From positions 1-53,888 of IMG/VR virus record IMGVR_UViG_3300031578_000046: a stretch of 53,888 bases of DNA; one strand, given 5' to 3'. Source of the stretch: a virus (Duplodnaviria > Caudoviricetes). A program made the translations under genes and the position numbers. The notes below the pieces were generated by a model. It made no database searches and was not told the DNA's origin. It saw nothing but the letters and a program-made list of their open reading frames with translations. Every line of letters starts with the position of its first letter. The stretch's first letter is position 1. Positions 4,750 through 22,773 of the stretch are shown one piece after another.

Positions 4750-4980
4750 TTAATAATTATCGGTTACAAGTTTTAAACCATTAAATTTATAAATTTTTAA
4801 TTTTCGTTTTATTGCCCCCTGATAGCTTATATTTTCATCTTTGGCATATTGTGATAATGTTTTAATATTTAAAATAATAGCAACGTGTTCAAAAATTTGA
4901 ACCAAATCATCATTATTTAGCTCTCCCTTATGAATACATGCAAATAATCTATCTTTTATAATAAGCGATCTATCAGACAT
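4750..4980 (-). CDS. Small putative DNA-binding (HTH-like) protein adjacent to attI-like site
   Basis: KTLSQYAKDENISYQGAIKR resembles an HTH; start codon 40 bp from the array crossover at 5021. Confidence 0.65.
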   Translation of the reverse strand: MSDRSLIIKDRLFACIHKGELNNDDLVQIFEHVAIILNIKTLSQYAKDENISYQGAIKRKLKIYKFNGLKLVTDNY

Positions 4981-4989
4981 TTATGTTAA

Positions 4990-5023
4990 GTTTAAAATTT
5001 TGAACTGACTTTATACAATTGTT
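4990..5023 (+). other. attI-like array entry site, copy 1
   Basis: GTTTAAAATTTTGAACTGACTTTATACAATT-GTT, directly before the first cassette. Confidence 0.7.
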
Positions 5024-5294
5024 AGCGGCAAGCGAAGAAAGGCTTCGGCATTGGCTTCCAATATATTATTTTATTACTTGGTGGTGGACTGCTTTTATAT
5101 CTATTTTCCCACTTCTCACTACCATCGGTAAATTTAAAGTGCATTAAATGGTGTATTGTTCTGTTTTCAAGCATTACAATATATTCTGCTGTCATATCTG
5201 TTTGCGGTGGATAAAAAATATATGAACGCCAGCCGCTAACAAGCAATATAAAAAATGCCTTAAAGTGTGCTAAAATTGAAGTTCTTGTTTTCAT
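5022..5294 (-). CDS. Cassette gene, DUF551-like C-terminus
   Basis: IIYWKPMPKP motif; starts in attC loop, TAA at crossover. Confidence 0.6.
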   Translation of the reverse strand: MKTRTSILAHFKAFFILLVSGWRSYIFYPPQTDMTAEYIVMLENRTIHHLMHFKFTDGSEKWENRYKSSPPPSNKIIYWKPMPKPFFACR

Positions 5295-5358
5295 ATTTAC
5301 TTTATTTTTAATTGATAAATTAGTTCTTTGTAGTCGGCACTTTTCATATTGCCGACCA

Positions 5359-5697
5359 TTAGGCAACATAATGCGCTACTGCTGCCATCCAAAGTATATG
5401 TATAACGTTATCAACTATCACATGCCCCCAAAATTTGCTAAAATCATTCTGGAATTTACCAGTCACCCTGCAAAACCAAGCTACAAAATGTGTTCGGTCT
5501 TGTATGTAATGTTGTACTGCAATAAGCAATAGTTGTATTAAACTTAGTTCTGTAAATATAAACGGTATCATGTACGTTAAAATGTGTACACTACACGCAA
5601 AGTCGCTTTTCTTTTTGTTACCTGCCATCCAATCATTTTGTAGCAAGTAGTCACCTATTAAGTGGGCTAATATCCAAGGCAAATTTAGTCCTATCAT
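5359..5697 (-). CDS. Cassette gene, DUF3307-like membrane protein
   Basis: LAHLIGDYLLQNDWMA, QHYIQD, DNVIH motifs. Confidence 0.75.
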   Translation of the reverse strand: MIGLNLPWILAHLIGDYLLQNDWMAGNKKKSDFACSVHILTYMIPFIFTELSLIQLLLIAVQHYIQDRTHFVAWFCRVTGKFQNDFSKFWGHVIVDNVIHILWMAAVAHYVA

Positions 5698-5951
5698 AAT
5701 TACGTTGCCTAACAATAAATATAGCAAATAGCCAAGTTAGGCGTGCATTTGTCACTATCTGCGTGTTTATAATCATTTTACTGTATTCAAAGTTTGTGCT
5801 ATTTATGGCTACTTGCCATATTCTCAACGTTAGCAAACATTAAAACGATTTGCTAACACGGTATATAACCAATGCTTACCGTGTAGCTTCGTATTAAGTT
5901 TCTGCAAGTGCTTTAAAAATTTTGCCAACGCTCTTTAATTTTTTTCAAAAA

Positions 5952-6383
5952 TTATTTTTTAGTTTCATCACAAATATTATATTTTGGACAATAAGTACAT
6001 GGCTGTGGAGGTTTTAAAAAATCATCATTTTTTACAGTAAAAAATTCATATAAGTCTTTGCATAAATATCTATCACACTTTAAAGGCATTCTTTCACCTC
6101 CATTTTTAATTATTGATTTTATTCTTAATTTACCATAACGCCAAGGTGATTCTAATTTATATGAATACATTTGTATATTTTTTACTTTACAATAAAAATC
6201 TATACTTAAATACTCACCATCTTCAGATGTTTCAGTTTCTTTTATTAAATGTTTACAAAAATTAAAACACGAATGTTTATTATTAGGATTTTCTTTACAT
6301 GCTTTTTCGTGTTTTATGCAATCATTTGACCTTTTATAAATTTTATTACAGTAATCGCATTTAAAAGCTTCTATTTTTTCCAT
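5952..6383 (-). CDS. Cys-rich (zinc-finger-like) protein inside an attC loop
   Basis: CDYC...HEKAC and CTYC motifs. Confidence 0.65.
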   Translation of the reverse strand: MEKIEAFKCDYCNKIYKRSNDCIKHEKACKENPNNKHSCFNFCKHLIKETETSEDGEYLSIDFYCKVKNIQMYSYKLESPWRYGKLRIKSIIKNGGERMPLKCDRYLCKDLYEFFTVKNDDFLKPPQPCTYCPKYNICDETKK

Positions 6384-6547
6384 AATTTATTTATATTAAT
6401 GTTAAAAAATGCCCCCTAAAAATTTTTAAAACAGGAACTCCTGTTCTCGTATCGAAATTTGTAGGTTTATTCGCACTGGTCATATACCCACCGTTATGTA
6501 CAAGCGCAAAGCAGTACATCTAATAAAGTTCAGTGGGAGTAATTTTA

Positions 6548-6736
6548 TTATTTTTTCTTCCTACCTCCTCTTTTAACATCAAGTTTTCTAACTTCTAATT
6601 GCCAATCTAAATGTATCGGAAATTTTTTACCTTTTAAAGTATGATAATTATAACCTAATTCATCACACATAATTTTTAAATTACCAAACGGCATAATTTG
6701 CTTTTTATACCAATCAATATATAGTATTGTTTTCAT
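6548..6736 (-). CDS. Hypothetical protein (cassette cargo)
   Basis: ORF with AT-rich leader. Confidence 0.55.
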   Translation of the reverse strand: MKTILYIDWYKKQIMPFGNLKIMCDELGYNYHTLKGKKFPIHLDWQLEVRKLDVKRGGRKKK

Positions 6737-6862
6737 TTTTATTTTCCCAAAATATTATTGATGATTCAAATGGATATATAACTCTTGCTTGATGTTTTCC
6801 ACATTTAATACATTTTCTTTCAGAAGGAGTTATCATAATCCATTTATGTCTATGTAATAATT

Positions 6863-7054
6863 TCATATTTGTGTAGCTTTTAAATTACTTAAATCTGGAA
6901 AATTTATTAAACAATTGAGTTTATTAATCGCTCTGTGTTTTGCATTATCTTTAGTTGTGGCATCAATAAACATTGTTTTTCCTTCTGGAAATAATTTTTG
7001 AGCAAGTTTACAATTTCGCCCCTTACTACTTAATTCTACTGCAAATGTTTTCAT
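6863..7054 (-). CDS. Hypothetical protein (cassette cargo)
   Basis: ORF downstream of a promoter-like element near 7082. Confidence 0.55.
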   Translation of the reverse strand: MKTFAVELSSKGRNCKLAQKLFPEGKTMFIDATTKDNAKHRAINKLNCLINFPDLSNLKATQI

Positions 7055-7286
7055 ATATTATGTGATTTTTTTAATTATACGTAAATATAGTTATTATGTT
7101 TCTAATAAACAAGAATTATAGTGTTTATTTTTCTATTTTAATTAAAATATTTTTGCCATCACACAAAAAATAATAAAATTACCTTTCTTCGTAGCGTGCT
7201 AAGTGGCTGATAATGCGCCAGTACATAACACGCAATAAAGCACATTAAAACGATGCCTTATTGCTGTCCGTTGTACGCAATAAAAA

Positions 7287-7493
7287 TTACTTACGTACTA
7301 GTATATTTAATGGTTCTTTGCCTTTTCCTATCAAATATTTATCTACCGCAATTGCAGCTTCTCTTTCTGTATCATAAGTTTTTCTGCAAACATTTGGCAG
7401 TGTTATCATCCAGTAATTTTTATCAGTAGTTTGAGCACACTGCTGTACATATTTGTATTTACTTTTTCCGTATTTTGTTGTCTGTTGTGCCAT
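7287..7493 (-). CDS. AP2-like DNA-binding protein (cassette gene)
   Basis: SKYKYV...W...TYDTEREAAIAVD pattern. Confidence 0.55.
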   Translation of the reverse strand: MAQQTTKYGKSKYKYVQQCAQTTDKNYWMITLPNVCRKTYDTEREAAIAVDKYLIGKGKEPLNILVRK

Positions 7494-7602
7494 AAGTCGT
7501 AATTTTAAAAGCGTACAACACGCTGTATAGTTAATAAGCCGGATAGTTTTGTGCGTTGATTTGGGGCTGTGTGGTCGGCTTACATAACCATACAGCCATC
7601 CA

Positions 7603-7896
7603 TTATAAACAAGCGTAAATAAGCACACCTAAGATTAAACCAACTACAAAACCTACAATTCTGTTATTTATTGGATCGTTCCAAAAACGCCAGTTTATAA
7701 CATTTTGTAAATGCAAGCCGTTTGCGCTCGCATCAGCTTTCACAGCCGCACTATCTAAACTATCAAATACGGTGTCTTTAATCTCATCCCATATTTCAGG
7801 TTCGTGTTTTTTAATCAACCTTAATAATTTAAAGTAAGTTTCTCCATTCATTGAAACTCCGCTAATTGTCACTTTTACATCTTTAATATCTGCCAT
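7603..7896 (-). CDS. Cassette gene with C-terminal TM helix
   Basis: Starts in attC loop, TAA at crossover. Confidence 0.6.
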   Translation of the reverse strand: MADIKDVKVTISGVSMNGETYFKLLRLIKKHEPEIWDEIKDTVFDSLDSAAVKADASANGLHLQNVINWRFWNDPINNRIVGFVVGLILGVLIYACL

Positions 7897-7975
7897 CGCT
7901 CGGTTATTTATAATTTATATTCACGTTCATAATTTTGTGCTATTTTCAACAACGGCCAGCACTTACAAGTTGCCG

Positions 7976-8281
7976 TTAGCGGCAAGCTGGCCTCCACAAT
8001 TCAAATTTATCCATTAATCCGTCATCCCTCATCACCTTACCTACTCCTATATATTCAGCTTCTACCCAATCTATATTTCCTTTATATCTAATTCTATCAC
8101 CTATTTCTGGCTTTTCATCTTCAATATTCAGCCAGCCGCTAACATGCGGTATAGGTAATTTGCCGTCCTCCGATTTAAGTTTGTGCAAATCTGCCAAAAA
8201 ATTATCAACTAATTCTTTTGTTTCAAATCCTTCCAATGCTTTAGAAAGATTTTCATACTTTGTTATTAATTTCTGTATCAT
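7976..8281 (-). CDS. Cassette gene, hypothetical
   Basis: Starts in attC loop (LPIPHVSG), TAA at crossover. Confidence 0.6.
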   Translation of the reverse strand: MIQKLITKYENLSKALEGFETKELVDNFLADLHKLKSEDGKLPIPHVSGWLNIEDEKPEIGDRIRYKGNIDWVEAEYIGVGKVMRDDGLMDKFELWRPACR

Positions 8282-8355
8282 AATTTTTTTAAGTTAAGTA
8301 TTTCAATTCAAGTCTGGTGCGGTGCGTGGGGCAAACATACCCATACCGCCAGCCG

Positions 8356-8607
8356 TTAGGCACAATGGTAAGTTGCACCTTTCTTCCATTCCTCCACACG
8401 CTTTTGTGCTGCCTCTAATGTTTTAAAGCTTTTACTAAATGGTTGTAGTATCGGCCAAGTTTGTATCACACCACCCCACGCATTTGTTCTGTACCAACTC
8501 CATTCTTTGCGTTTCCACCAAAGCATTCCTTTTTCTTCATATCCTCGTATTTGTATCTCAAATGCTCCGCAATATTCTCTAATTCTATATTCTACTTCTT
8601 TTTTCAT
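8356..8607 (-). CDS. Cassette gene, hypothetical
   Basis: Fills the cassette body, TAA at crossover. Confidence 0.6.
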   Translation of the reverse strand: MKKEVEYRIREYCGAFEIQIRGYEEKGMLWWKRKEWSWYRTNAWGGVIQTWPILQPFSKSFKTLEAAQKRVEEWKKGATYHCA

Positions 8608-8748
8608 AAACCACTGTGCCTAACAATAAATATAGCAAATAGCCAAGTTAGGCTTGTATTTGTCACTATTTGCATGTTTATAATCATTTTACTGTATTCA
8701 AAGTTTTGTGCTATTTATGGCTACTTGCCATATTATCAACATTAGCAA

Positions 8749-9000
8749 CTATAAATTGCCTTCAATAAATCTATCTACGTGTCTTTCTGGTATGTACAGG
8801 TGCATTTCCTCGTCCTCATTAATCCATTCACGAAAGGCAATTAACAGTTCCCTTCGGTTGCTAACAACGGGTATAGCAAATAATTTTACTATCTTTTCTG
8901 TGTAATTGTTAATACTTTCTTGTATTTCACCAATTGTATTATCTCTCTCGGTAATCTGATTCTCAAATTCAATTAATAATTTTTTTACTTCTTTTTTCAT
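8749..9000 (-). CDS. Cassette gene, hypothetical
   Basis: Starts in attC loop (FAIPVVSN). Confidence 0.6.
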   Translation of the reverse strand: MKKEVKKLLIEFENQITERDNTIGEIQESINNYTEKIVKLFAIPVVSNRRELLIAFREWINEDEEMHLYIPERHVDRFIEGNL

Positions 9001-9055
9001 AATATAGTTTTTTAGTGTTTCAAATCCGTAAAATTACATTGCCATACCCAAAACG

Positions 9056-9295
9056 TTATAAAACATTTGCCAACCGCACTATTGTTGTCAATTTAATTTC
9101 TTCTTTTTTCAGTGGACATTCATTTGGGATATTTCCGTCACGGCTATTCTCGTGTGTTATTATCATACACTTGTATGGGTCTTTAAGCTTTTCAAAATAT
9201 GGATGACCACATTTCATAGCATTTCCTGATGTCGTGTAGAATGGACATTCATTCCAACATCCTTTTACTTTTTTGGTTTTCTTTATAATTTCCAT
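9056..9295 (-). CDS. Cassette gene, Cys-rich hypothetical
   Basis: CWNECPF...CPLK; TAA at crossover. Confidence 0.6.
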   Translation of the reverse strand: MEIIKKTKKVKGCWNECPFYTTSGNAMKCGHPYFEKLKDPYKCMIITHENSRDGNIPNECPLKKEEIKLTTIVRLANVL

Positions 9296-9490
9296 CGTTA
9301 AAAACGTTTTATAACAACGTATAAAATTAATTGCTACGTTATTGGGTTATTTAATGTATTTACTTTTAATCAATTTTTAGTAGTTTGCGAAAGTCGTGCA
9401 TCTAACACGCAACTAATCTTATACCAACGTTATACACAAGCGTAAGAAAGTTTCGTTCATTTAATCAACACCTGTGCAACCTTGCCATAA

Positions 9491-9679
9491 TTATTTTTTG
9501 CCTTCGCTCTTACAATTTTTCAAATTGTTTAGGAATTGGTTTAATGGTTCTTCCCAATGTTTAGCAAGTTTTTGAGAGCCGTTAACAGCTTTTACTAAAG
9601 TAGTGTCGGGCATCTTTAATTGTCGTTCTATTCCTCTAAGGCTTAACGAGTCTTTATTTTTTCTTAGCCATTCTAACAT
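9491..9679 (-). CDS. Small HTH protein (cassette cargo)
   Basis: LSLRGIERQLKMPDTTLVKAVNG, Cro-like HTH. Confidence 0.6.
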   Translation of the reverse strand: MLEWLRKNKDSLSLRGIERQLKMPDTTLVKAVNGSQKLAKHWEEPLNQFLNNLKNCKSEGKK

Positions 9680-10050
9680 GAAGCTCCGCTTAAATAGTTA
9701 GCCATATTGCATGTATCAAATAATGATGCAGGTTTTTTAATCCTTTCATTATTTTCTTCTAATCCTTTTAGGATCCATTCTAATTTTTGAATGTCTTGTA
9801 TTTGCTCCATTATCGTAATTCTGCCTTTACTTTCTCCTTCGCTACCAGTTTTATGAACTAAACACACAACACCACCAACCGAAACATAAGCACCTATTAT
9901 TTCATATTGGATTAAATCATCTTCAATATAATCAACCCAACCGCAACTACAATAAGCGTTTGTTTTTATACTATTATTAATAATACGCTCAGCCTCATTA
10001 CACATTAGCTTGATAAGGGCTTGTTTTGCTTCTTTAATTTCAGTTTTCAT
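9673..10050 (-). CDS. Hypothetical protein (cassette cargo)
   Basis: ORF downstream of the promoter at 10078-10085. Confidence 0.6.
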   Translation of the reverse strand: MKTEIKEAKQALIKLMCNEAERIINNSIKTNAYCSCGWVDYIEDDLIQYEIIGAYVSVGGVVCLVHKTGSEGESKGRITIMEQIQDIQKLEWILKGLEENNERIKKPASLFDTCNMANYLSGASC

Positions 10051-10077
10051 AATCTTAGTTTTTCGTTAAACAATATC

Positions 10078-10085
10078 CAAATATA
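10078..10085 (-). promoter_or_regulatory. Bacteroidota -7 promoter element
   Basis: TATATTTG on minus strand matches TAnnTTTG, 28 bp upstream of ATG. Confidence 0.55.
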
Positions 10086-10280
10086 AGGGTAATATATTTA
10101 ATATCCTAATATAAAGGTAAAAAAAGAACCCCTCCCTAAAAAATAATTATTACTTCCGTGTTTCAAATGTAGGTAAGTGATTAAACGCCAGTGTATAACA
10201 ACGCATAAAAATAAAAGCCTTTGGAAGCTTATTATTTCAAATTAACGTTGTAGTGTCGGCTTCAATTCTTATGCAAACCG

Positions 10281-10496
10281 TTAGGTTTCATTTGCCACCG
10301 CCACACGGTTATCAGACTCCCACGCCTCAATTGCAAAATGCTGTGACCGTATGTAGTTTTCATGACTACGATAGCCACATTTAGAACATTCAAGCCTAAA
10401 AGCAACACCGTTAAACGAACTGCCATTGTCTCCACATTCTTTGTCTATTTCTGCTTCTCCTCCGCATTTTTTACATGGTATTTTTTCTGTACTCAT
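10281..10496 (-). CDS. Lar-like zinc-ribbon protein (cassette gene)
   Basis: PCKKCGGEA...CSKCG...AIEAWE pattern of Lar restriction-alleviation-like proteins. Confidence 0.55.
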   Translation of the reverse strand: MSTEKIPCKKCGGEAEIDKECGDNGSSFNGVAFRLECSKCGYRSHENYIRSQHFAIEAWESDNRVAVANET

Positions 10497-10670
10497 AATC
10501 TTGTTTTTACCCCACCGCACAAAACGAAAACCTAACAATTTATATATTGCAAATTTTTTAGTAATTGTAGGTGAGTGGTTATTAATTTATTTTATCTCTA
10601 ATTGTTAATTTATCTCATTCTGGTTGCAAAATTCGACAACATATAAGTTGCCGTTAGCAGCCATACAAGG

Positions 10671-10847
10671 CTACTTTTCATATCTTATTGCTCTGTCTTT
10701 CATTATGTGCCCACACTCAATGCATGGCTTTTCAAACCACACTTTACCATCATGCTTACATCCTTTACATACAGTTATTTCAACCTTAGTAGTACGGCTG
10801 CTAACAATATGTTTAGGTAATTGGGATTTTGTGTTATCTTGTTTCAT
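10671..10847 (-). CDS. 58-aa Cys-rich cassette gene (not in ORF track)
   Basis: MKQDNTKSQLPKHIVSS...CKGC...CIEC; starts in attC loop. Confidence 0.5.
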   Translation of the reverse strand: MKQDNTKSQLPKHIVSSRTTKVEITVCKGCKHDGKVWFEKPCIECGHIMKDRAIRYEK

Positions 10848-10930
10848 TGCATTTCAATTTTAAGTTTATCAATATTTGGTAGGGTAGTGCAAGTAATCCC
10901 AACTACCCAAACACTCAACATTAGGGCGAA

Positions 10931-11251
10931 TTAAGCCGACTTAATAAGTTTAAGGCTATCTTCACCAAAACCCGAAAAAGAATTGAAATTATAGCAGGTG
11001 TTTGCTTTTACAAATGCTTTCTGCCAAAGTTCCATCCCTTTGCTTCCAAGTACATATAATGGAGTTCCGTCACAATCTCTAACGCATCCAATTATATACA
11101 GTCTCATTCCTGCATATTCACAATCTTCATCCCAAGCTATAATTTCAACCAAGTCATCTACTTTATACTTGTGCTGTTTAGCGTTATTTTCTTCTCTATA
11201 AGTTTTCCCAGTTTTCGGGTTTTTAAGGTCTGCAATATTTATAAGTTCCAT
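10931..11251 (-). CDS. Cassette gene, hypothetical
   Basis: Fills the cassette body 10920-11275. Confidence 0.65.
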   Translation of the reverse strand: MELINIADLKNPKTGKTYREENNAKQHKYKVDDLVEIIAWDEDCEYAGMRLYIIGCVRDCDGTPLYVLGSKGMELWQKAFVKANTCYNFNSFSGFGEDSLKLIKSA

Positions 11252-11371
11252 ATCTAAAAATTAACTCGCCCTAACAATAAATAAACCCAATATGGCAGGG
11301 GCAAGGTTCTGCCATTGTTTAAAGTTCGGTAGGCTGCCAAACTGTGTTTATTAAAACCGTTGTGTGTAATA

Positions 11372-11665
11372 CTACTTACTAAGCTCAATTAAGCAATTCT
11401 TTAGTATTTCAAACGCATCCTCTTGCGCTGCTTCTGTTGTGGAAAATCCAGCCCCACGCTCACTCGGTTCATGCAAGCTTTCTTCTAACACTTGCAATGC
11501 TTTTTCGGCAGCATCTTCTATTGCGTTATCCACACGCTCACGCTCTTCAATTTCTTCCATAGCTATTCCATAACCTTCCCAGTTATCTACTCCAGCGCAT
11601 TCCAACGCACGCATTTTAGCTTCAATCAACTCTAATTCTTTTAATCTACTTTTTGAAATTTCCAT
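11372..11665 (-). CDS. Cassette gene, hypothetical phage protein
   Basis: ALECAGVDNWEGY motif familiar from small phage proteins. Confidence 0.65.
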   Translation of the reverse strand: MEISKSRLKELELIEAKMRALECAGVDNWEGYGIAMEEIEERERVDNAIEDAAEKALQVLEESLHEPSERGAGFSTTEAAQEDAFEILKNCLIELSK

Positions 11666-11797
11666 TTTATTTAAGTTTTGCGGCTTAAAGTACTACACAC
11701 AACAACGTATATAGTTAAAAAGCCATGTTAATATTCGTTCATTTAATCAGCGTTTGCAGTTGGCTTTCAAACCATATACCAACGTTAGCGGTAATTG

Positions 11798-12178
11798 CTA
11801 CACCACTATCGGCTCTTCGCAAAATGGACATTCGCCAATCTGTATTACTTTTGTTTTGTAGAAGCTCCACGCACTAGCCCTATCAATTTCACTTTCGGTT
11901 ATTGGTGTATACCAGTTTCCAGAAACTTCGCCTGTAATATCATAATATCGTCCATTGTATTTAGTTATTACGTGGTCTTTTTCTTTGCTTATAAAAGCCT
12001 CACTTTCTGGGAAGAATGTTTTTAGCAACAAGTGAAATTGATAACACGCACCATTCATATAAATCATTTCAATATACCTATCTGTTTGGCGAAGTGCGTT
12101 AATAAACCGCAACATACCGCTAACAATACCTATATTTAATTGGGCGTTTACTGCCTCTTCAAACTCTTTTGCTTCCAT
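11798..12178 (-). CDS. Cassette gene, hypothetical
   Basis: Starts in attC loop; GACYQF...HV...YYDITG. Confidence 0.65.
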   Translation of the reverse strand: MEAKEFEEAVNAQLNIGIVSGMLRFINALRQTDRYIEMIYMNGACYQFHLLLKTFFPESEAFISKEKDHVITKYNGRYYDITGEVSGNWYTPITESEIDRASAWSFYKTKVIQIGECPFCEEPIVV

Positions 12179-12251
12179 TTTGCTTTACTTTATATTGATA
12201 ATTTAGTGCTATTAATGCCCAACTAAACATAGCCGAGCCGTTAGCAAACAT

Positions 12252-12455
12252 TTATAAACCGAATCGTTCAGGTTTATAAATTTCGTGCTTCCAATCTTTT
12301 AAATGAGTTTCAGTACTCTTTTTAATTTTTGCGTGTGCAGGTATTTTTTGGTCAGTAAGCAAACATTCGAATATCAAGCCAGTAAATACCTTAGGAGCTG
12401 TATAGTCTTCTAACCAGTAAACTATTCCTATTTCTAAATTTTGTGTGTAGTGCAT
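12252..12455 (-). CDS. Cassette gene, hypothetical
   Basis: Fills the last cassette of array 1; start taken at MHYTQN. Confidence 0.5.
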   Translation of the reverse strand: MHYTQNLEIGIVYWLEDYTAPKVFTGLIFECLLTDQKIPAHAKIKKSTETHLKDWKHEIYKPERFGL

Positions 12456-12745
12456 AATAAAACGATTTGCTAACACAACCTATACACCATAAAGCGATAT
12501 AGTATTGTATTAAGATTAAACATTGTGCTCTTTTTGCTATGTCTATTTTTGGCATGAGTATTTTTTAATTTTTATTTATTAATAAGATATTATTTTTACC
12601 GGCTTCTTTACCTGCATAATAAAATTCTAAAAATTTAGTAAAAAATAACATATCAAATTCTTTTCGTGTAAATTTATTACTTATAGTTTCATAAACTTCG
12701 TCCATAAATTTAGTTATATCAAAACATTATTTTTCTTCAAAAAAA

Positions 12746-14134
12746 TTAAAACATGTCATTTTCGAATTCTTTATTTACTTCTAAATAATTATCAAATATT
12801 ACAATATCTTCAACATCCCATTTTGTAAGACTATTATCATTAACCTTTACTATTATATCATCTAACATTCCATTCCTATGTTTAGATATTATAATTTCGA
12901 CAATATTAACAAGCGAATTACCCTCATCATCTTGAAAAATTCCATATTTTTCAGGCCTATGTAAAAACATTACAATATCTGCATCTTGCTCAATAGCTCC
13001 TGATTCTCTTAAATCAGAAAGCTGAGGTCTTTTACTACTTCTGTTTTCAACACCTCTGTTCATTTGGCTTAATGCAATAATAGGTATATCTAATTCTTTT
13101 GCCAAAACCTTTAGCCCCCTGGATATACTTGATATTTCTTGTTCTCTACTTTTTTTATTTTGTTCATTCGAATTTGTCATTAATTGAATATAATCAATTA
13201 TTATCAATTGAATATCATATTTCATTTTTAATCTTCTTGCTTTAGCCCTTAATTCCATTAAAGATAATGCCGCCGTATCATCTAAATATATAGGCAAATC
13301 GACTATTTTGTTTAAATGATTATCCAATATTTCCCATTCTATATTACCATCTCTTAAATTAGTTGGTGTATATTCTGAATCAATACACATTAATCGCCCT
13401 GTTAATTGATTTGTTGACATCTCTAATGAAAATAAAGCAGTTGGCACATTTGAATTTTTAGCACAATTAAGCGCATAAGCAGTTTTTCCCATTGATGGCC
13501 GAGCTGCTATAATTATTAAATCAGTTTTTTGCCATCCTGAAATAATTCTATCCACCCTTGTTATACCAGAAGGAATACCAGTTAATTTATTTTTTTGCTT
13601 TTGTATTATTTCGATTTCTTTAATCTTATCTCTTATAGCTTCTTTTAAAATAACGGCATCTTTTTTAATATTAAAATCAGTCACTTGATATAATTCATTT
13701 TCAGAATAATCTATTAAATCTTCTAATTCAATTGATTCATCAAAGGCCATATTTTGTATGGCCGATGAAACCCTTATTAATTCCCTTTGTATAAATTTCT
13801 GATAAATAATTCTAGAATGAAACTCTATATTTGATGCAGAAGCAATACTATTAGTAAGTTGTATAATATAAAAAGGGCCACCAATTTGATCTAATTTGCC
13901 TGATAATCTTAATTGTTCTGTTATTGTTAATATATCAATAGGATTTGACTTTGTATTTAATTCTATTGCAGCTTTATATATTATTTGATGAGCTTCTTTA
14001 TAAAAGCTATCTGGTTTTAAAAAATCACATATTTCATAAATAGCATCTTGTTCTAACATTAAAGCTCCTAATACAGCTTCTTCCATATCCACAGCTTGCG
14101 GAGGTATTTTACCGTATTCAAAATAATTATTCAT
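12746..14134 (-). CDS. dnaB: Replicative DNA helicase
   Basis: PPQAVDMEEAVLGALM, AARPSMGKT, FSLEMS, IIIDYIQL, SDLRESGAIEQDAD, KHRNG. Confidence 0.97.
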   Translation of the reverse strand: MNNYFEYGKIPPQAVDMEEAVLGALMLEQDAIYEICDFLKPDSFYKEAHQIIYKAAIELNTKSNPIDILTITEQLRLSGKLDQIGGPFYIIQLTNSIASASNIEFHSRIIYQKFIQRELIRVSSAIQNMAFDESIELEDLIDYSENELYQVTDFNIKKDAVILKEAIRDKIKEIEIIQKQKNKLTGIPSGITRVDRIISGWQKTDLIIIAARPSMGKTAYALNCAKNSNVPTALFSLEMSTNQLTGRLMCIDSEYTPTNLRDGNIEWEILDNHLNKIVDLPIYLDDTAALSLMELRAKARRLKMKYDIQLIIIDYIQLMTNSNEQNKKSREQEISSISRGLKVLAKELDIPIIALSQMNRGVENRSSKRPQLSDLRESGAIEQDADIVMFLHRPEKYGIFQDDEGNSLVNIVEIIISKHRNGMLDDIIVKVNDNSLTKWDVEDIVIFDNYLEVNKEFENDMF

Positions 14135-14266
14135 TTTTGTCTTTTTATATATTCCATTAAACCAGGTAAGTTTTCTTCAATACCAAAAACTATAAATTTC
14201 ATTCTATCATTCATATTAATATGTTGTTTAGGTTTTTTAGTTTCAAAACCTTCTAATGATAATTGA

Positions 14267-14941
14267 TTATCTAATTGGTTTTTCATTTTGTAATTGTTTT
14301 CTTAAATTAATACCCGTTTTTATTTGTGTATTTATTTTATTTTCATCTTTAAACCAAACATTAATAGCTTTTTGTTTCCAATTTTTAACTGGCTTGTCAT
14401 TTGAATCTTTCCAGTCATTTATTGAATATGATTTAAACATTTTAATTGCAGTATCTTCTTTATATCCGTTTTCTTTAAAATATTGTTTAACATCATCTAA
14501 AATTGGAGGTATAAATATATTTACTTTCTTTTTCTTTACTTTACTTTCCTTTACTTTAATAGTATTACGTTTTATATTCGATTGTTTTACGTTCGTATTA
14601 CGTTCGTATTTTTCCCAACGTTTATTAATACTTTCACGTGCCTTTTCACTTTTCGCAGCCCTTAAATTCAATCTATCTATAACACTTTCTGACCAGAACT
14701 TTTTATCATCTTTTTTAAATAAATCAAAGTCAAATAATAGTGATTTTATAAGTTCGTTATTTGTTCGTAATTCGAATGAAATACGTTCGTATTCAGTAAA
14801 TAATAAATAGCCGCCTTCTTCATAAAGCATTTCAATTAAACACCAATAAAGCCCAATGCCCTCAAGTTTATGTTTCATTAAAACTTTAACAAGCTCTTTG
14901 TCATTTCTAGCGTAGTAATCGTGTGAAAAATAATCCTTCAT
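14267..14941 (-). CDS. Phage replication initiator (DUF4373-like N-terminus)
   Basis: YFSHDYYARND...GIGLYWCLIEMLY; C-terminal PPILDDVKQYF...W...PVKNWK; adjacent to dnaB. Confidence 0.75.
   Translation of the reverse strand: MKDYFSHDYYARNDKELVKVLMKHKLEGIGLYWCLIEMLYEEGGYLLFTEYERISFELRTNNELIKSLLFDFDLFKKDDKKFWSESVIDRLNLRAAKSEKARESINKRWEKYERNTNVKQSNIKRNTIKVKESKVKKKKVNIFIPPILDDVKQYFKENGYKEDTAIKMFKSYSINDWKDSNDKPVKNWKQKAINVWFKDENKINTQIKTGINLRKQLQNEKPIR
14588..14792. repeat. Iteron-like repeats within initiator gene
   Basis: TACGTTCGTAT at 14588, 14599 and 14782. Confidence 0.5.
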
Positions 14942-15069
14942 AATTCTTAATATATGAAGCAGTCACCCTGTTAGGAATACAGCTAACTCAGTAGAGGAAG
15001 TGCCAGGGCAACTGCATATTTTAATTGTGTGTGTGTTTTCATTAGACTAAATTAACTATATTCCTACAA

Positions 15070-15077
15070 CAAATATA
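15070..15077 (-). promoter_or_regulatory. Bacteroidota -7 promoter element for replication operon
   Basis: TATATTTG on minus strand. Confidence 0.55.
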
Positions 15078-15088
15078 CTAATTTATAA

Positions 15089-15436
15089 TTAAAAAATACT
15101 ATTCTTAATTAAGTTTTTAAAATGTTTTTTTATTAACCGTCCAGTTAATTTATAATAATTTTCACTGCAATGTACATATTCATACCGTTTTATAGTTGAT
15201 TTAGAATAACCAGTTAATTTTGACATTTCTTTTCTACTTAACTCCATTTTTTCACGCCTTAATTTCACTATATCCGATATGCAAATATCAAATGGATCAA
15301 TACATGAATCGCATATATCACATTTTTCGCCAACCCAACCTATTCTTAGATAGGATATGTGTAAACAAATAAAACATTTACTTTTAATTTTAGATGCATT
15401 AATTAAAAAAGATTCTTCGGTGCATATATGTCCCAT
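15089..15436 (-). CDS. XRE-type HTH protein with Cys-rich N-terminus
   Basis: RREKMELSRKEMSKLTGYSKSTIKRYE. Confidence 0.7.
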   Translation of the reverse strand: MGHICTEESFLINASKIKSKCFICLHISYLRIGWVGEKCDICDSCIDPFDICISDIVKLRREKMELSRKEMSKLTGYSKSTIKRYEYVHCSENYYKLTGRLIKKHFKNLIKNSIF

Positions 15437-15439
15437 AAT

Positions 15440-15643
15440 TTATTTTTTTATATTTTTATTAAATTCATATTGTGATTTATTAATTTTATTATCGGGTTTT
15501 TTTGTTAAAATAAAAGTTCTATCATTTATTTTAACTTTTCGGTATAATTTTTCTCTCTCTCTTTGTTTTGCTTGCAATTGAATAATTTTTTTTTTATGCT
15601 TAGTGATTTTTTCTAAATCTTGATTTTTATTTATTATTTCCAT
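15440..15643 (-). CDS. Hypothetical protein
   Basis: ORF in packed operon. Confidence 0.5.
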   Translation of the reverse strand: MEIINKNQDLEKITKHKKKIIQLQAKQREREKLYRKVKINDRTFILTKKPDNKINKSQYEFNKNIKK

Positions 15644-15650
15644 GATACAA

Positions 15651-15869
15651 TTATTTATTTTTTTGGTAACCTATTATTTTTTTAGGTTCAATTTCAACTC
15701 GAATTATATTTTTATATTTATTATTCCATTTTTTTTTAAAAAATTCAATTTCATTGGTGTTTAAAGAACCATATATATAATTTATATTTTTGTTATTGCC
15801 TGTGACAATGCAGAAGTGACAATAATAAATTACACCCTGTTTTAATTCGCCTTTATATATTAGGTTCAT
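15651..15869 (-). CDS. Hypothetical protein
   Basis: ORF in packed operon. Confidence 0.5.
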   Translation of the reverse strand: MNLIYKGELKQGVIYYCHFCIVTGNNKNINYIYGSLNTNEIEFFKKKWNNKYKNIIRVEIEPKKIIGYQKNK

Positions 15870-16296
15870 TTTTTATTAAATTTTCAATTTCCTTAATCAT
15901 TTTTCTATATTCTGTATTTGTTTCGCATAAATTATTAACAGTTTTACACGAATATAATACAGTTGCATGGTGTTTATTACCAATTTCACTCCCTATTTTT
16001 GCCAATGTTAATTTTGTTAAGTTTTTTGAAAAATAATGAGCAATTTGCCTGGCTTGAACAAATTCTCTTTTTCTATTTTCACAGTTTAAATGAAAGTCTA
16101 ATATATTAAAATAATCGCAAATAACCTTTATAATATAATAAATATCTATATATTTTTTTCCAATTACTTTTAAAATTGCTTTACGACAATTCCATTTATG
16201 TTTAATTTTATTAATATTTTTTGAATTAATTTTATTAAGTTCGTTTGCTATTAAATTTATTTCATCAATTGAATAATAATTTAGAGTTTTTTTCAT
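15853..16296 (-). CDS. DnaA C-terminal HTH domain protein
   Basis: RKREFVQARQIAHYF...LTLAKIGSEIGNKHHATVLYSCKTV. Confidence 0.85.
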   Translation of the reverse strand: MKKTLNYYSIDEINLIANELNKINSKNINKIKHKWNCRKAILKVIGKKYIDIYYIIKVICDYFNILDFHLNCENRKREFVQARQIAHYFSKNLTKLTLAKIGSEIGNKHHATVLYSCKTVNNLCETNTEYRKMIKEIENLIKNEPNI

Positions 16297-16562
16297 TTTA
16301 CATTTATTTTTATCCATCTATTTAATATAGCATTTGCAGTATTTATATTGAATTTATACCGGCAATATAATCGTTCAATATAATTGTCAAAGTTAGGACA
16401 GCCGATAAGATTTTCATTAACTTTAATTTCAGATATAACACCTTTAATCCAAGCTTCTTTACGGTAGATTTCTAATTCTTTTTTATTCATTTTATTAGCT
16501 GCTATGCAAACGTAAATGAATAAAATTAGAATTGTTATGAAAATTATTGATAGTGTTTTCAT
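16293..16562 (-). CDS. Hypothetical membrane protein
   Basis: N-terminal TM helix. Confidence 0.55.
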   Translation of the reverse strand: MKTLSIIFITILILFIYVCIAANKMNKKELEIYRKEAWIKGVISEIKVNENLIGCPNFDNYIERLYCRYKFNINTANAILNRWIKINVK

Positions 16563-16987
16563 AAATTATAGTTTTTAAGGAATTTATTATAATAATTATC
16601 TGTTTTGTGTTTAGGTAAAAATCCACCACACCAAAACCGGGCTACTTTTTCAGGATTATATTCCGAGTTCCAATAATCGTTAATAATATAAAACATTTCA
16701 ATAGATTTGGAAAAGTTAAATCTATCATCATAAGAATAGTTAAATCCAGAAATACGATTAGCCTCATCAACAGCAATTTTAAACATTTGTAATATTCCAG
16801 AAGCTTTAGATCGTTTATTTATTGCCTTTTCATTAAAGTTTGATTCGATTTTCATTATAGTAAAAAGACATTTTTCTTTTCTTAAAACAAGCTCCTTAAA
16901 TTCTTTAAAAATATCAAAGTTTAATTCTTTGTTTTTTAGTGGAAGAAAAATAAACGTTATAAGTATAATTATAATCATTTTTTTCAT
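16559..16987 (-). CDS. Lytic transglycosylase (SLT-like) with N-terminal hydrophobic segment
   Basis: IMKIESNFNEKAIN...ASGILQM motif. Confidence 0.75.
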   Translation of the reverse strand: MKKMIIIILITFIFLPLKNKELNFDIFKEFKELVLRKEKCLFTIMKIESNFNEKAINKRSKASGILQMFKIAVDEANRISGFNYSYDDRFNFSKSIEMFYIINDYWNSEYNPEKVARFWCGGFLPKHKTDNYYNKFLKNYNL

Positions 16988-17038
16988 TAATATTAATTTG
17001 GTTAATATTTAAGACAATAGATTTTCTATTGAATATTG

Positions 17039-17072
17039 GTTTAAAATTTTGAACTAACTTTATTCAATTGTT
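17039..17072 (+). other. attI-like array entry site, copy 2
   Basis: GTTTAAAATTTTGAACTAACTTTATTCAATT-GTT. Confidence 0.7.
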
Positions 17073-17448
17073 AGCAATCAGTTTGCCGAGCAGAGCAATC
17101 ATAATCACCGTGTTTACATATATTGTTTTCATTATTTGCACAAGCATTTGAGTAGCAAACCGAATTGCTAACAAGTTGTATAATTAATGCTTTGTTCTCG
17201 TCTGTAATTTTTGCCCACGCACACTTTTCTTTGTCAAGTCCGTACAAGGCATTGCTAATCTCATTGTTAATATCTTCCCACCTATCATCTTCCTCAATCT
17301 CCTGCTCTTCCTCACATCCGCATTGCCTGCATATAGTTGTGTTTAAATGCCACTTATTACTACATACACCATCGTTTAGGTCAAATATTGCTCCGCAATG
17401 CTCGCAGGGTGTTGGCATTTCCATTTGTTCTAAATCATATTCTTCCAT
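17071..17448 (-). CDS. Cassette gene, Cys-rich
   Basis: CEHC/CRQC; starts in attC loop, TAA at crossover. Confidence 0.6.
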   Translation of the reverse strand: MEEYDLEQMEMPTPCEHCGAIFDLNDGVCSNKWHLNTTICRQCGCEEEQEIEEDDRWEDINNEISNALYGLDKEKCAWAKITDENKALIIQLVSNSVCYSNACANNENNICKHGDYDCSARQTDC

Positions 17449-17529
17449 CGCTCGTAAATTTTAAAGTTTGTATCTCGTATTATCTTTTCTGCAAATTTGG
17501 TAAAGCGCACTAATCATACAACAGTACCG

Positions 17530-17841
17530 TTATGCCCCATTAGGCTTAACATCTTCTACTCTATATTTAAGTACTTCTGTTTCTGAAACACCGCAACACA
17601 CGCATCTAATTACATCTACTATTTCATCGTGCATTATTTCGGCTGCAGGGCTTTGTACTGGCACATCTACCCAAGTGTTACTACGTAGTCGCCCAATAAC
17701 TTTGTGTGTGTATTGTTCATTTTTACAGCCATGTCTTTTCTGCTCAATTATTCCGTAATCTCCAAAATCTAAAACGGGGCATAACAATGCATCATATTGC
17801 ATAGCCTCGTTGTTATCGGTAGTTTCGTTCTTTTTATTCAT
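17530..17841 (-). CDS. Cassette gene, hypothetical
   Basis: Starts in attC loop, TAA at crossover. Confidence 0.6.
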   Translation of the reverse strand: MNKKNETTDNNEAMQYDALLCPVLDFGDYGIIEQKRHGCKNEQYTHKVIGRLRSNTWVDVPVQSPAAEIMHDEIVDVIRCVCCGVSETEVLKYRVEDVKPNGA

Positions 17842-17913
17842 TTCAGTTTATATTTTAAGGTTTGTAATTCTAATCAAAAGGCTACGCAACATATGCTAGC
17901 CATTATCGGCAAC

Positions 17914-18624
17914 CTAAAAAGACAGCGTACCTTGTTTGATACTTTCTGAAATTCGTTTGATTGCCTTGTCAATATATTCTTTGTCGATTTCACACGCTGT
18001 TAAGTGTAAATTCATTTTATCTAATCGGTTTGCTTTATCAACTGCCAAAGCTATTGAGCCGCTCCCGAAATGGGTATCTAATATCTTCATTCCTTCGGTT
18101 GCGTAGTTTTTTAAAGTATAACTATACAAACATATTGGTTTTTGTGTGGGATGGAACGTGCCCCCTTCACGCACTAAAACAAGTGGATTTTTAGTATATT
18201 CACGCAAAGCCCTATTAAATGAAGTGTAAGCAAGTTCAGCATCGGAACTGCTAAAATTACCACGGTCTTTTCTCCATATAATCCAGCCCATCGAAGGCTT
18301 TAAATATTCCACCATATAGTTAGCTCCCCAAATTATTTGGTTTTTGCTTACTCTGTATAATTCTTTAAAGTAATCTTCTGTTGGTATGTTTGTATCCCAG
18401 CCTTTAAATTCGTGGGCTTTTCTTCCTCCGTGGCTTCCGCTTGTTTGTTTTGCACCATCATACCCAATCCCATAAGGTGGGTCAACAATAGCCAAATCAA
18501 AGTATTTATCAGGGTATTGCTTCATAATTTCCATACAATCAGCGTGGAAAAGAGAAAGAAAAGGCAGCCGATAACACTCGCTATATGCAATTTGGGGGTC
18601 GGTGGTATTCGTAAGTTCGTTCAT
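17914..18624 (-). CDS. DNA methyltransferase (N6-adenine/N4-cytosine, beta class), cassette gene
   Basis: DLAIVDPPY, HPTQKP, ILDTHFGSGS. Confidence 0.92.
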   Translation of the reverse strand: MNELTNTTDPQIAYSECYRLPFLSLFHADCMEIMKQYPDKYFDLAIVDPPYGIGYDGAKQTSGSHGGRKAHEFKGWDTNIPTEDYFKELYRVSKNQIIWGANYMVEYLKPSMGWIIWRKDRGNFSSSDAELAYTSFNRALREYTKNPLVLVREGGTFHPTQKPICLYSYTLKNYATEGMKILDTHFGSGSIALAVDKANRLDKMNLHLTACEIDKEYIDKAIKRISESIKQGTLSF

Positions 18625-18849
18625 TTAATTTACATTTGTTAAGTTTGATAGTGCAGTGCTTTTAATTCCCAAACTGCACATAGCGGAAACGTTAGCAATA
18701 ATTAGCCATCACACGCCATTCATTCTACTTTCAATGATTAGAAATCCATTCTACTATTTGGCGAACCCTCAAAGTTCTAATAAATTCCCTTTGTATTTTA
18801 AGCAAATTATACCTAATAATATTTGAATTATTTCCCATATTAATCCATA

Positions 18850-19188
18850 TTATAAATTGAAAGGTATGTTATTTTTCTCTAAATTCAAAATTATTTTGTT
18901 AAAAATAGCCTCATCAATTAATAAAATATCCATCATTACATCATTGAATAATGGTAATATTTCAATTGCATCTGTTATATTATTATCAAAAATATCATGA
19001 CATTGGTGATGTGCTAACCCTGTATTCAAATCCATACATTCATATTCTTTACTCTCAGATATTCTAATCTTATGGGCTAATTGACCATGACTTCCAATAA
19101 AATGGCCGCAAAAAATACAATAAGGCTCTTTTTCTATTAGCCACTTTTTACGTTTTGATTTCCAGTTTTTTATCTGATTATTTGTCAT
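18850..19188 (-). CDS. HNH-like endonuclease
   Basis: CIFCG...QLAH...NTGLAHHQCH. Confidence 0.55.
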   Translation of the reverse strand: MTNNQIKNWKSKRKKWLIEKEPYCIFCGHFIGSHGQLAHKIRISESKEYECMDLNTGLAHHQCHDIFDNNITDAIEILPLFNDVMMDILLIDEAIFNKIILNLEKNNIPFNL

Positions 19189-19640
19189 TATATAAAGTTT
19201 AAAATATCCCGTTCAAAATCCTCCATTGAAATATCTTTTAAAAAGTGTTTCAATATTACATCTAGAGATTTACTATAAATCTCGCTAAATTTATTATTAT
19301 CCATGCTTTTAAATGATATACTTCTTGCTTGCGGTATTGGATTACTATCCTCTTTTAATGTTGGGATTACATCAAATTCACCTATTAATATCATTATATA
19401 TTTTCTTATCTTATCAATATGGCCAAAATCAACCATTAAATTTTCCGGTAAATGATTAATAGTACAATTTAATAAAGCGAAGTACTTTCTATGAAAATCA
19501 ATATTCCTTTCTTTCCATGTTTCAATCTCACAATAATCGCCCTCATCTAATTTAAGTAACTTTTTAAAATTATCATCATTTATAGCACTAATTCCGGTCA
19601 TAAAAAATTCTAAGTTTTTTATTTGTAATTTAGCTTTCAT
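19188..19640 (-). CDS. DUF1367/NinB-like protein
   Basis: RNIDFHRKYFALL and RSISFKSMD...FSEIY. Confidence 0.7.
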   Translation of the reverse strand: MKAKLQIKNLEFFMTGISAINDDNFKKLLKLDEGDYCEIETWKERNIDFHRKYFALLNCTINHLPENLMVDFGHIDKIRKYIMILIGEFDVIPTLKEDSNPIPQARSISFKSMDNNKFSEIYSKSLDVILKHFLKDISMEDFERDILNFI

Positions 19641-19915
19641 AAATTAATAGTCTCTTTATGTTGGGATGATTTGAATATCATTATTTGCATTTTTTACGTT
19701 CAAGTTTTTTCATGTTCTTTATTTTAATTTATATGTTTTAAAGAATATAGCCCCATTTATTATATAGGAGGTTTTAGGTAGAGCATGTTGCGACTAGTAC
19801 GCAGAGCATGGATAAATGGCTAATGTTTTTCTCCCTAGGATTGAGAACTTCATGTTAGCCCCTGCTGCTATATTCATATTAATTTTTAGTTATTTTGTAG
19901 TCATTTTTTTTACTT

Positions 19916-20161
19916 TTAAACAATACCATCATCATTAGTTAATAGGTTTTTAATTAAATCGTCTCTTGTTTTAAAGATAAACTCCTCATTAATAATACAA
20001 GGGGAGTAATTTTCTTTAGTACCTTTATTTAAGTAATATTGTATATTCGCAATACCTTCATCTACGGTTATATCAATTTTAGTAATAGGTAAATGCCTTG
20101 CTTTACTTTGAATTATTACCCACACTTGTTGACCTTCGTTGAATTTAGTTTCAATTTTCAT
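19916..20161 (-). CDS. Hypothetical phage protein
   Basis: MKIETKFNEGQQVW start common in Bacteroidota phage proteins. Confidence 0.6.
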   Translation of the reverse strand: MKIETKFNEGQQVWVIIQSKARHLPITKIDITVDEGIANIQYYLNKGTKENYSPCIINEEFIFKTRDDLIKNLLTNDDGIV

Positions 20162-20296
20162 AATTTTAGTTTTTAGTTATTTTATAATTAATTTCATTGC
20201 TTTTTAATAGTCTTATTTTTCGAGTATCTAGCCTTTCAATGGCCCATCCCATTAATTGTTCTATCTGTTTTAAGTCGTCTTTAGTTTTCATAATAT

Positions 20297-21073: not shown

Positions 21074-21161
21074 TATTTTTTATTTTATTATAGAATAGTA
21101 TTTAAAAATTTCTTGTTTTATTTTCATTAAATTCAATATAAACATCCATACTTTTTTAAAC

Positions 21162-21674: not shown

Positions 21675-21677
21675 TAT

Positions 21678-22046: not shown

Positions 22047-22053
22047 AGTTTTA

Positions 22054-22562: not shown

Positions 22563-22773
22563 AGTTTTAAATTTTGGTTTCGTTTAAATAATAAATATAA
22601 GCCAAAAATTCTTTCATGATCTGATTATCATTTTCAGTTACTTCGCTGCCTGGTGATAATTGATAAAGTTTATTTAATTGTTTCATAGCTGTTTGTTTAA
22701 TTATATTTAAAGATAATTAATAATTTTTATAAAATATATGACTTTTATCATGTTTTGTTATTTATAATCATTA

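Follow-up and report, generated by a model that had tools for sequence, protein, structure and literature searches.

Integrons are understood as bacterial platforms which express promoterless genes, with those genes found in the sense orientation relative to their recombination sites, attC. attC-site clusters that have no integron integrase (CALINs) are also described from virulent phages, including Polaribacter phage P12002L, in the text of Qi et al. 2023 (PMC9892861). As presented there, each such cluster comprises at least two predicted attC sites, with those of P12002L having 'divergent directions'. Considered here is a 53,888-nucleotide (nt) stretch of virus DNA (Duplodnaviria; Caudoviricetes), i.e., positions 1 to 53,888 of IMG/VR record IMGVR_UViG_3300031578_000046, which in its entirety is referred to as the window. 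The window is a tailed-phage genome (terminase, portal, tail genes, and DnaB by Pfam), with a G+C of about 30% and with called genes found, without exception, on the minus strand. As with the phage CALINs of PMC9892861, so far as these are characterized in that article's text, it possesses attC clusters without an integrase and has a methyltransferase among its cargo.

The reading that is preferred here, to which we assign a probability of roughly 0.65, is that the window carries phage-borne integron-type cassettes, that is, CALINs, which are arranged in mirror image to the textbook cassette and which reside in a phage of virulent type that has no integrase of its own. The structure of the junctions, the covariation within their stems, their polarity, the exchange of cassettes among phages at a G|TT step, and, for at least one cassette, an overlap of attC with coding sequence are all observed. 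What these observations are is described first, with the points weighing against this reading, and the principal alternatives to it, taken up as the relevant evidence appears.

Cassette units and their matched ends

Small minus-strand open reading frames (ORFs) of the window are flanked by inverted ends which have a common core, [G/A]TTA.. on one side and ..TAAC on the other. The 5 to 6 bases found beyond that core vary between units but match within a unit. A strict test for such ends required a 9-nt perfect complement ([G/A]TT plus 6 nt ... 6 nt plus AAC) with at least two G/C in the variable part, an A following the AAC, and a distance of no more than 800 nt. Under this test 26 matched end pairs are found, whereas 200 block shuffles give 1.7 on average and never more than 6; the reverse complement gives 8. 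A looser scan for inverted ends (80 found vs 47 expected) was dropped in favor of the strict test as too noisy in A+T-rich DNA. Inclusive of three with weaker cores, approximately 30 units are present in six stretches, which together amount to 13,258 bases, or 25% of the genome, while the structural module is free of cassette stretches. Three units have GTTG in place of GTTA.

As envisaged on the plus strand, a cassette would extend between successive G|TT crossovers, starting with the TT of the first and finishing with the G of the second. It would have its attC at its end, and its cargo, on the attC bottom strand, would be between one and three small accessory genes. From the perspective of the gene, by contrast, the attC would be upstream and the stop codon would abut, or indeed make use of, the crossover TTA. 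In about half of cassettes the start codon would be found in the attC loop, with the reading frame then extending through the L'' and R'' arms. The stretches are as follows, each with its strand:

5021-12474, plus: array 1, consisting of 17 units with matched ends, top strand plus and genes minus
17070-18697, plus: array 2, 3 units
22869-24346, plus: array 3, 4 units and a degenerate one starting at 24341
25123-26805, plus: array 4, 4 units, including the helix-turn-helix (HTH) regulator 26388-26672 and the 53-nt attC 26753-26805
50479-51255, plus: isolated cassette, paralogue of 9430-10280, with attC 51162-51255
52652-52889, plus: isolated matched-end unit around ORF 52663-52869 (minus)
4959-5021, 17008-17070, 22807-22869 and 25061-25123, plus: four copies of a conserved 'array start' sequence

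The array-start sequence (60-150 nt) is conserved ahead of the first cassette in four arrays, with similarity stopping directly past GTT(A); an attI-like landing site is one possible role for it, a promoter module another. In extended form these regions are 4750-5027, 22724-22875, 24978-25129, and 17008-17076. The copies at 22774-22875 and 25028-25129 hold a 14-codon ORF remnant of a small gene, 4750-4980.

Individual cassettes, sites, and cargo genes referred to in the text are these:

5022-5358, plus: cassette, ORF 5022-5294 (minus) with its stop on the TTA past the crossover and its ATG in the attC loop, frame through L'' and R'' (..FILLVSG..)
5234-5364, plus: attC-like site, R''-2 nt-L''...L'-5 nt-R'
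5359-5829, plus: cassette, DUF3307 membrane-protein ORF 5359-5697 (minus) lying wholly between the ends, attC 5707-5835
5830-6493, plus: cassette with a 29-bp end-to-end unit, 5829-5857, and ORF 5952-6383 (minus)
6494-7270, plus: cassette, three small ORFs (6548-7054, minus), 54-nt attC 7223-7276
7271-7602, plus: cassette, ORF 7287-7493 (minus), attC 7513-7608
7603-7975, plus: cassette, ORF 7603-7896 (minus) with its stop on the crossover TTA, attC 7695-7981
7976-8355, plus: cassette, ORF 7976-8281 (minus) with its stop on the crossover TTA and reading through R'' (..PHVSG..), attC 8137-8361
8356-8741, plus: cassette, ORF 8356-8607 (minus) lying wholly between the ends, attC 8618-8747
9430-10280, plus: cassette, paralogue of 50480-51249
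17903-18691, plus: methyltransferase cassette, ORF 17914-18624 (minus), R'' 18569-18575, attC 18569-18697
10281-10496, minus: Lar-like protein, cargo
11372-11665, minus: gp5.9-like RecBCD inhibitor, cargo
11798-12178, minus: YunG-like gene (Pfam)

The attC at 5707-5835 has a near-identical counterpart at 8618-8747. Where cargo is recognizable, by Pfam and PHROG, it is of a host-takeover or anti-defence type.

Structure of the junctions

An attC-like layout, i.e., R'', short spacer, L'', intervening sequence, L', long spacer, and R', is seen in all 27 of the junctions examined, and in all 27 the inner boxes (L''/L') pair with a score of at least 12. For true L''/L' partners (n=21) the median score is 29 and the lowest 20; for mismatched partners, drawn from other junctions (n=420), the median is 12.5, the 95th percentile 18.5, and the highest score 25. 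Sites mostly are 93-131 nt in length, some are 53-54 nt, and several span 200-450 nt, these latter being so long because coding sequence occupies their loops. In the cassette 7603-7975, for example, R'' (7695-7701) is found at codon 65 of the 97 making up ORF 7603-7896.

The extreme is cassette 5830-6493, with half-sites 636 nt apart which enclose the whole of ORF 5952-6383. Its L''/L' score is 27, its spacers are 2 and 4 nt, and two A.C mismatches are present. The cassette ends at 5829-5857 are just 10 nt apart, forming a 29-bp hairpin, with the L''/L' boxes found within 5858-6499, and this puts the gene inside the attC loop instead of between the two ends. A scan of the window with Rfam returned no match above the gathering score of any family.

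Polarity of the sites

Criteria for assigning strand were calibrated on two integrons from the same phylum, G181 and G390, the orientation of which is fixed by intI along with their ORFs. With G181 (G+C 0.39) intI is divergent from the array and with G390 (G+C 0.29) it is co-oriented; the attCs of the latter are unusually long, at about 222 nt. In both, cassette ORFs are on the strand reading GTT...ORF...AAC, and the top strand displays a left spacer of 2-3 nt together with a C-rich right spacer of 6-7 nt (12 of 12 sites in G181, 8 of 8 in G390), with an extra C in L'' in all of these sites.

On the plus strand of the window, the right spacer is the longer one in 26 of 27 junctions (medians of 5 nt to the right and 3 nt to the left), the AAC is followed by A, and [G/A]TT has a C before it. 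Read on plus, the L stems contain 50 A.C vs 6 G.T transition mismatches, and the A.C ones hence become G.T pairs on the minus strand. The text of PMC5027507 gives 1.24 vs 0.39 G:T per site in favor of the bottom strands of attC, a polarity which is that of the window's minus strand.

A covariance model, as built from 15 Vibrio sites, finds 15 Shewanella attCs (E up to 0.09), all of them on the ORF strand. A combined Vibrio and Shewanella model then matches seven window junctions end-to-end on plus and two on minus, with both of the minus matches scoring below their plus counterparts. The best match is to attC 26753-26805, at 17.3 bits for plus vs 10.6 for minus. Separately, 53062-53115, which is inside of ORF 52883-53161, scores 16.0 bits on minus vs 10.3 on plus, which could reflect either chance or a solitary site with the reverse polarity.

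That plus is the attC top strand is supported by these observations, and window genes therefore are antisense to the attC top strand. The typical cassette layout, with an ORF that is sense to the top strand and an attC found downstream of that ORF, is not what is seen; genes instead are on minus and the top strand is plus. Both the strand assignment and the antisense placement of all cassette genes had been put forward in a preliminary description of this DNA. The first is borne out by spacer geometry, as calibrated on same-phylum integrons, and by the G|TT boundaries; the second holds up given genes that are all minus and a top strand that is plus by geometry along with the comparative breakpoints described below. 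Covariance modelling, which that description had suggested as a check upon strand, prefers plus as well, if weakly.

Breakpoints and the exchange of cassettes

The methyltransferase cassette provides the more extensive of the comparisons. A search for its gene gave 69 loci in viral contigs, 62 of which were scanned, with 7 partial matches left out. The window's exact 9-nt ends surround the methyltransferase in 15 of those 62, other matched ends are found in 4, and no exact ends in 43. Among the 12 copies with visible upstream sequence, gene-sense similarity begins right past the neighbor's own variable ..TAAC, and the stretch that is conserved consists of a spacer, an L arm, the loop, the second L arm, a spacer, an arm, and then the gene. 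Downstream, similarity stops at ..ATAAC, after which 14 different sequences are seen. The mobile unit therefore is bounded by G|TT on the strand which is antisense to the gene and has its attC upstream of that gene. That is, the upstream attC accompanies the methyltransferase in every context and the downstream attC does not. The stem of this attC has 18 pairs, 10 of which display compensatory changes across the 12 copies. All 12 carry G.T at two positions of the stem when read in gene sense, and these take the place of extrahelical bases.

A second comparison is available from within the window itself. The paralogue pair 9430-10280 and 50480-51249 has its first approximately 70 nt and its last approximately 155 nt in common, inclusive of the whole of the attC. 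The right-hand attC is 100% identical over 10186-10283, with similarity extending from the R' crossover to the GTTA of the next R', while the left-hand junctions are unrelated; a plus-strand G|TT site delimits the pair on either side. The interiors of the two are unrelated genes, which resembles a swapping of cargo inside of a fixed frame. Together, the methyltransferase and this pair indicate that cassettes move as units, with crossover at the G|TT of R'.

It is these breakpoints that bear on whether the orientation might instead be canonical, with minus as the top strand, genes in sense, and the start codon plus leader of each gene provided by the attC of the preceding cassette. Read on minus, 12 units do consist of GTT, 16-40 nt, ATG, ORF, and a stop in or near ..TAAC, as do G181 cassettes. 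The GTT on minus also is intact in 30 of 30 units, and the extra base seen in about 8 L' arms would fall on the canonical side. A start that is borrowed from a preceding cassette is excluded, however, by the breakpoints of both the methyltransferase and the paralogue pair, as the former keeps its upstream rather than its downstream attC in every context and the latter has its right-hand rather than its left-hand junction in common. With spacer asymmetry under same-phylum calibration and the covariance model both pointing to plus as well, a canonical orientation is highly improbable.

A 78% identical copy of attC 5234-5364, the site encoding the leader MK..FILLVSG, is found in an otherwise unrelated phage record, where it is associated with another gene body and another downstream cassette, such that both flanks differ. 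Contigs from four soil-metagenome runs, as aligned to 4800-24799, break at junctions, with alternative flanks starting at 5236, 5365, 5835, 7270, and 8363; among these contigs, cassette 7271-7602 is seen with another left neighbor, from 7270. The flanks are a hint of population variation only, rather than proof of breakpoints, because their sides are 20-30 nt and intragenomic repeats confound them.

Overlap of attC with coding sequence

The preliminary description listed thirteen ORFs as stopping exactly on the three bases after the crossover base. For 12 of these the stop is indeed a TAA on the TTA directly past the [G/A] of R', but at position 49745 it is instead a TGA on G|TCA. The remaining ORFs stop 8-18 nt inside of the cassette. 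As for starts within the attC loop, about 16 had been proposed, whereas 13 units are counted in which a frame begun by a junction ATG continues through the right arm, one of these starts (that of 11798-12178) being probably false; in 12 further units the whole of the ORF is found between the arms. All eight of the arm peptides that had been quoted (LLVSG, PHVSG, PVVSN, HIVSS, GIVSG, QLVSN, FGVSN, and FSVSG) are present.

The frame in which arms are read is GTT-NNN in 10 of 13 read-through units, including 9 of 9 GTTAG arms, giving Val-Ser. As one alternative frame of GTTAG is closed by its TAG, 9 of 9 corresponds to a 1-in-512 chance if the two open frames are equally likely, a figure which ignores the common ends of units 5021 and 7975.

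For the window's methyltransferase, the ATG and 16 codons are inside of the attC. Of 16 methyltransferase copies, 15 keep an in-frame ATG within the attC, at a distance of 16 or 20 codons ahead of the arm, with leader sequences that differ; the 16th locus is cut. The next in-frame ATG is 14 codons into the conserved enzyme. Conservation thus supports a methyltransferase start that likely lies in the attC loop. With the YunG-like gene, 11798-12178, the ATG directly past the arm coincides with the start both of its Pfam match and of its homology to other phages. Its upstream start therefore is doubtful, and the true start may lie inside of the arms.

Weighing an integron origin

A number of findings tell against integron-type cassettes that are recombined by an integron integrase, and these are considered together here. 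First, no tyrosine recombinase was found in the window, whether with PF00589 in six frames, with Pfam for 99 ORFs, or with PHROGs for 80; with no intI in the window, this therefore is a CALIN rather than a complete integron. Among five other cassette-carrying phage records, none has an integrase above cut-off. Close homologues of the methyltransferase cassette also were not found among 401 sampled bacterial genomes, 4 of which have matches, at 43-48% identity. The phylum sampled is the one containing a Bacteroidales genome whose DnaB is of the same type as that of the phage.

Other such findings concern the sites. R' starts with A rather than G in 9 of 30 units, which would turn the conserved AAC cleavage triplet into AAT on the bottom strand, and a half-site distance of 636 nt is far above known attC lengths. 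The canonical extra C in L'' is seen in 2 of 27 junctions, with extra bases found nine times in L' and five times in L'', vs 44 in L'' and 1 in L', 22 and 5, and 12 and 0 for the three control sets; extrahelical bases thus lend the strand assignment no clear support. Covariance scores are weak, with the best at 17.3 bits and no window-wide E-value below 0.1. By folding energy the bottom strand is the more stable for 15 of 20 window sites, i.e., as minus, compared with 2 of 15 Vibrio, 12 of 12 G181, and 3 of 8 G390 sites. Given its failure in two of the three control sets, folding energy was not retained as a guide to strand. Lastly, G.T pairs on the gene-sense strand would be equally expected of an RNA hairpin.

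Much of the above could be accommodated were the same architecture and breakpoints generated by a host or phage enzyme other than IntI, with likeness to attC being convergent or distantly ancestral. Carrier phages without integrases, R' boxes beginning with A, half-sites separated by as much as 636 nt, and a cassette pool that appears phage-specific in the bacterial sample searched would all be consistent with this, as would the general lack of extrahelical bases, with two invariant G.T positions found in their stead, and a searched Polaribacter genome with no IntI above cut-off. Such an enzyme is unlikely all the same, since site geometry is equal to that of integrase-linked attCs of the same phylum, the GTT/AAC core and matched cassette ends are as seen in Vibrio, and IntI is common in the phylum, with the NCBIfam integron-integrase model above cut-off in 113 of the 401 sampled genomes. 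In addition, one P12002L attC site is reported to have recombined with attI1 under IntI1 (PMC9892861, section 3.4).

A different possibility is that these hairpins are primarily RNA elements of a polycistronic transcript, i.e., ones involved in translation control, processing, or stability, with modules shuffled by homologous or microhomology recombination at boundary motifs. Irregularities of the stem that are G.U-compatible on the mRNA-sense strand, 50 vs 6, the two invariant G.U in 12 of 12 copies, the start codon within the hairpin loop, and the NinB and exonuclease that are encoded by this phage would each fit. An intergenic RNA hairpin has no need, however, for cassette-specific complementary ends across a gene, which are seen in integron cassettes. 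Breakpoints also fall at a single base step, G|TT, with unrelated neighbors on both sides in at least 12 contexts, and R-box along with spacer geometry is that of a DNA attC. A primarily RNA function thus is doubtful indeed, somewhat more so than is recombination by some other enzyme, though a dual DNA and RNA role of the hairpins is possible.

If the preferred reading, that of phage-borne integron-type cassettes, is correct, then it would be a host integron integrase that recombines the folded gene-sense, i.e., bottom, strand over the course of infection, and cassette genes would be expressed by the phage's unidirectional transcription. An adaptation of the cassettes to read-through transcription initiated at phage promoters, in place of Pc, had been conjectured in the preliminary description. 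With the bottom strand being the sense strand, it would serve as the lagging-strand template in a co-directionally replicating phage, and placement on the lagging-strand template is described in the text of PMC5371416 as raising attC folding and excision. Carrying this further, and more tentatively, phages of Bacteroidota type may share a mirror-image cassette pool of their own. In that pool attC would be a portable 5' module, consisting of a hairpin, a start codon, and a short fixed-frame leader through L''/R'', as fused to varied anti-defence or host-takeover genes. Having the recombinogenic strand be gene-sense, and on the lagging-strand template, would favor folding as well as rapid turnover during infection, and recombination would be carried out either by an integrase borrowed from the host or by an enzyme not yet recognized.

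The phage and its host

Genes outside of the cassettes, along with the methyltransferase, that have been assigned are these:

252-1547, minus: large terminase (Pfam)
12746-14134, minus: DnaB (Pfam)
17914-18624, minus: N6/N4 DNA methyltransferase (Pfam)
48094-49392, minus: portal (Pfam)
further genes, minus: tail-module proteins and a DnaA-like HTH protein (Pfam)

A radical-SAM protein gene, 1917-2699, is found between the terminase region and the small-ORF region. The sole sizeable plus-strand ORF, 29101-29631 (176 aa, TTG start), falls between modules of lysis-like and tail type, matches nothing in Pfam or PHROG, and may be no gene. The ends of the window overlap by 177 nt (copies at 1-177 and 53712-53888, with one mismatch, position 51 vs 53762, and a period of 53,711). 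By this end repeat the record is probably complete, that is, a circularly assembled or terminally redundant genome, yet it is classed as linear and 51% complete.

The phage's DnaB is 55-61% identical to cellular Bacteroidota/Bacteroidales DnaB, with no nearer phage homologue among the matches listed, and resembles a host-derived replicative helicase. On the basis of that similarity the host therefore is probably a member of the Bacteroidota. Relatives of the phage itself are elusive: cultured phages have tiny DNA matches to the window only, its terminase is no more than 41% identical to any in the phage collection, a scan of viral contigs using DnaB as a single-protein query found no relative, and an exact-pattern scan with the array-start repeat found no match. 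Record G410 (53,758 bp) was considered as a possible relative and rejected, having three short pieces in common with the window and nothing more.

The window's sequence is present in four soil-metagenome runs. In all four, summed contig depth is about 5-20x higher in the bins 18140-18806 and 14138-14804, which correspond to the 5' part of the methyltransferase along with its attC and to a replication-initiator gene, respectively. This suggests that these segments are shared with other, more abundant genomes of the samples.

Comparison with known systems

Phage attC clusters themselves are already published. What appears to be new here, as not found in print, is a mirror-image, coding attC architecture, together with its scale. 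Neither antisense, coding attC cassettes in phages nor arrays this large were found in full-text literature searches, with PMC9892861 covered by its text. In the text of that article there is no description of a systematic antisense layout, of coding attCs, or of arrays taking up a quarter of a genome. P12002L nonetheless has units that are built as in the window, with genes on minus. The ends of its methyltransferase unit share 12 bases with the window unit 8355-8624, and adjoining that methyltransferase unit is a 56-nt attC that shows AAC-AA and carries an additional A in L''.

The result is a phage of virulent type in which cassettes of opposite polarity take up about 25% of the genome. At least one of them, that of the DNA methyltransferase, passes between many phages with a precision like that of integrons. 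If true more widely, then site-specific cassette exchange would be circulating accessory and anti-defence genes of phages in this phylum, attC sites would be capable of being coding and of serving as 5' leaders, and annotation tools which expect sense ORFs outside of attC would mis-call such arrays. The window also offers a concrete, testable substrate on which to ask if integron integrases of the host act upon the DNA of an infecting phage. A route by which cassettes could be seeded into a replicon lacking attI, such as that of a phage, is insertion into genomes at attG, as described in the text of Loot et al. (bioRxiv 10.1101/2022.09.11.507474), though that account is of E. coli chromosomes rather than phages and, so far as its text goes, is silent on gene polarity.

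Of integrase-associated systems, the G181 and G390 integrons resemble the window in having a short left and a long, C-rich right spacer, in low G+C (0.29-0.40), and in having stops in the ..TAAC box. They differ in possessing an integrase, in having ORFs that are sense to the top strand, and in their extra L'' C in all sites. The sedentary Vibrio chromosomal integron, as represented by the control array in phage record MK672802, has similarly matched cassette ends of 8-11 bp, homogeneous attCs of about 127 nt, AAC followed by AA, and C before GTT. Unlike in the window, its ORFs are sense to the top strand, three L'' bases are extrahelical, and its spacers are equal (3 and 3 nt).

With the textbook integron cassette, lastly, the window has in common GTT/AAC core boxes, a second pair of inverted boxes, and unpaired spacers, along with structure that is kept over sequence, complementary cassette ends, arrays of small genes, and G|TT breakpoints. 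It differs in that its replicon is without integrase or attI, in that fixed G.T positions largely replace single-base bulges, and in having loops of up to about 600 nt. It differs as well in that its genes are on the attC bottom strand, with attC 5' of the gene and with the start and N-terminal codons found inside of the attC itself.

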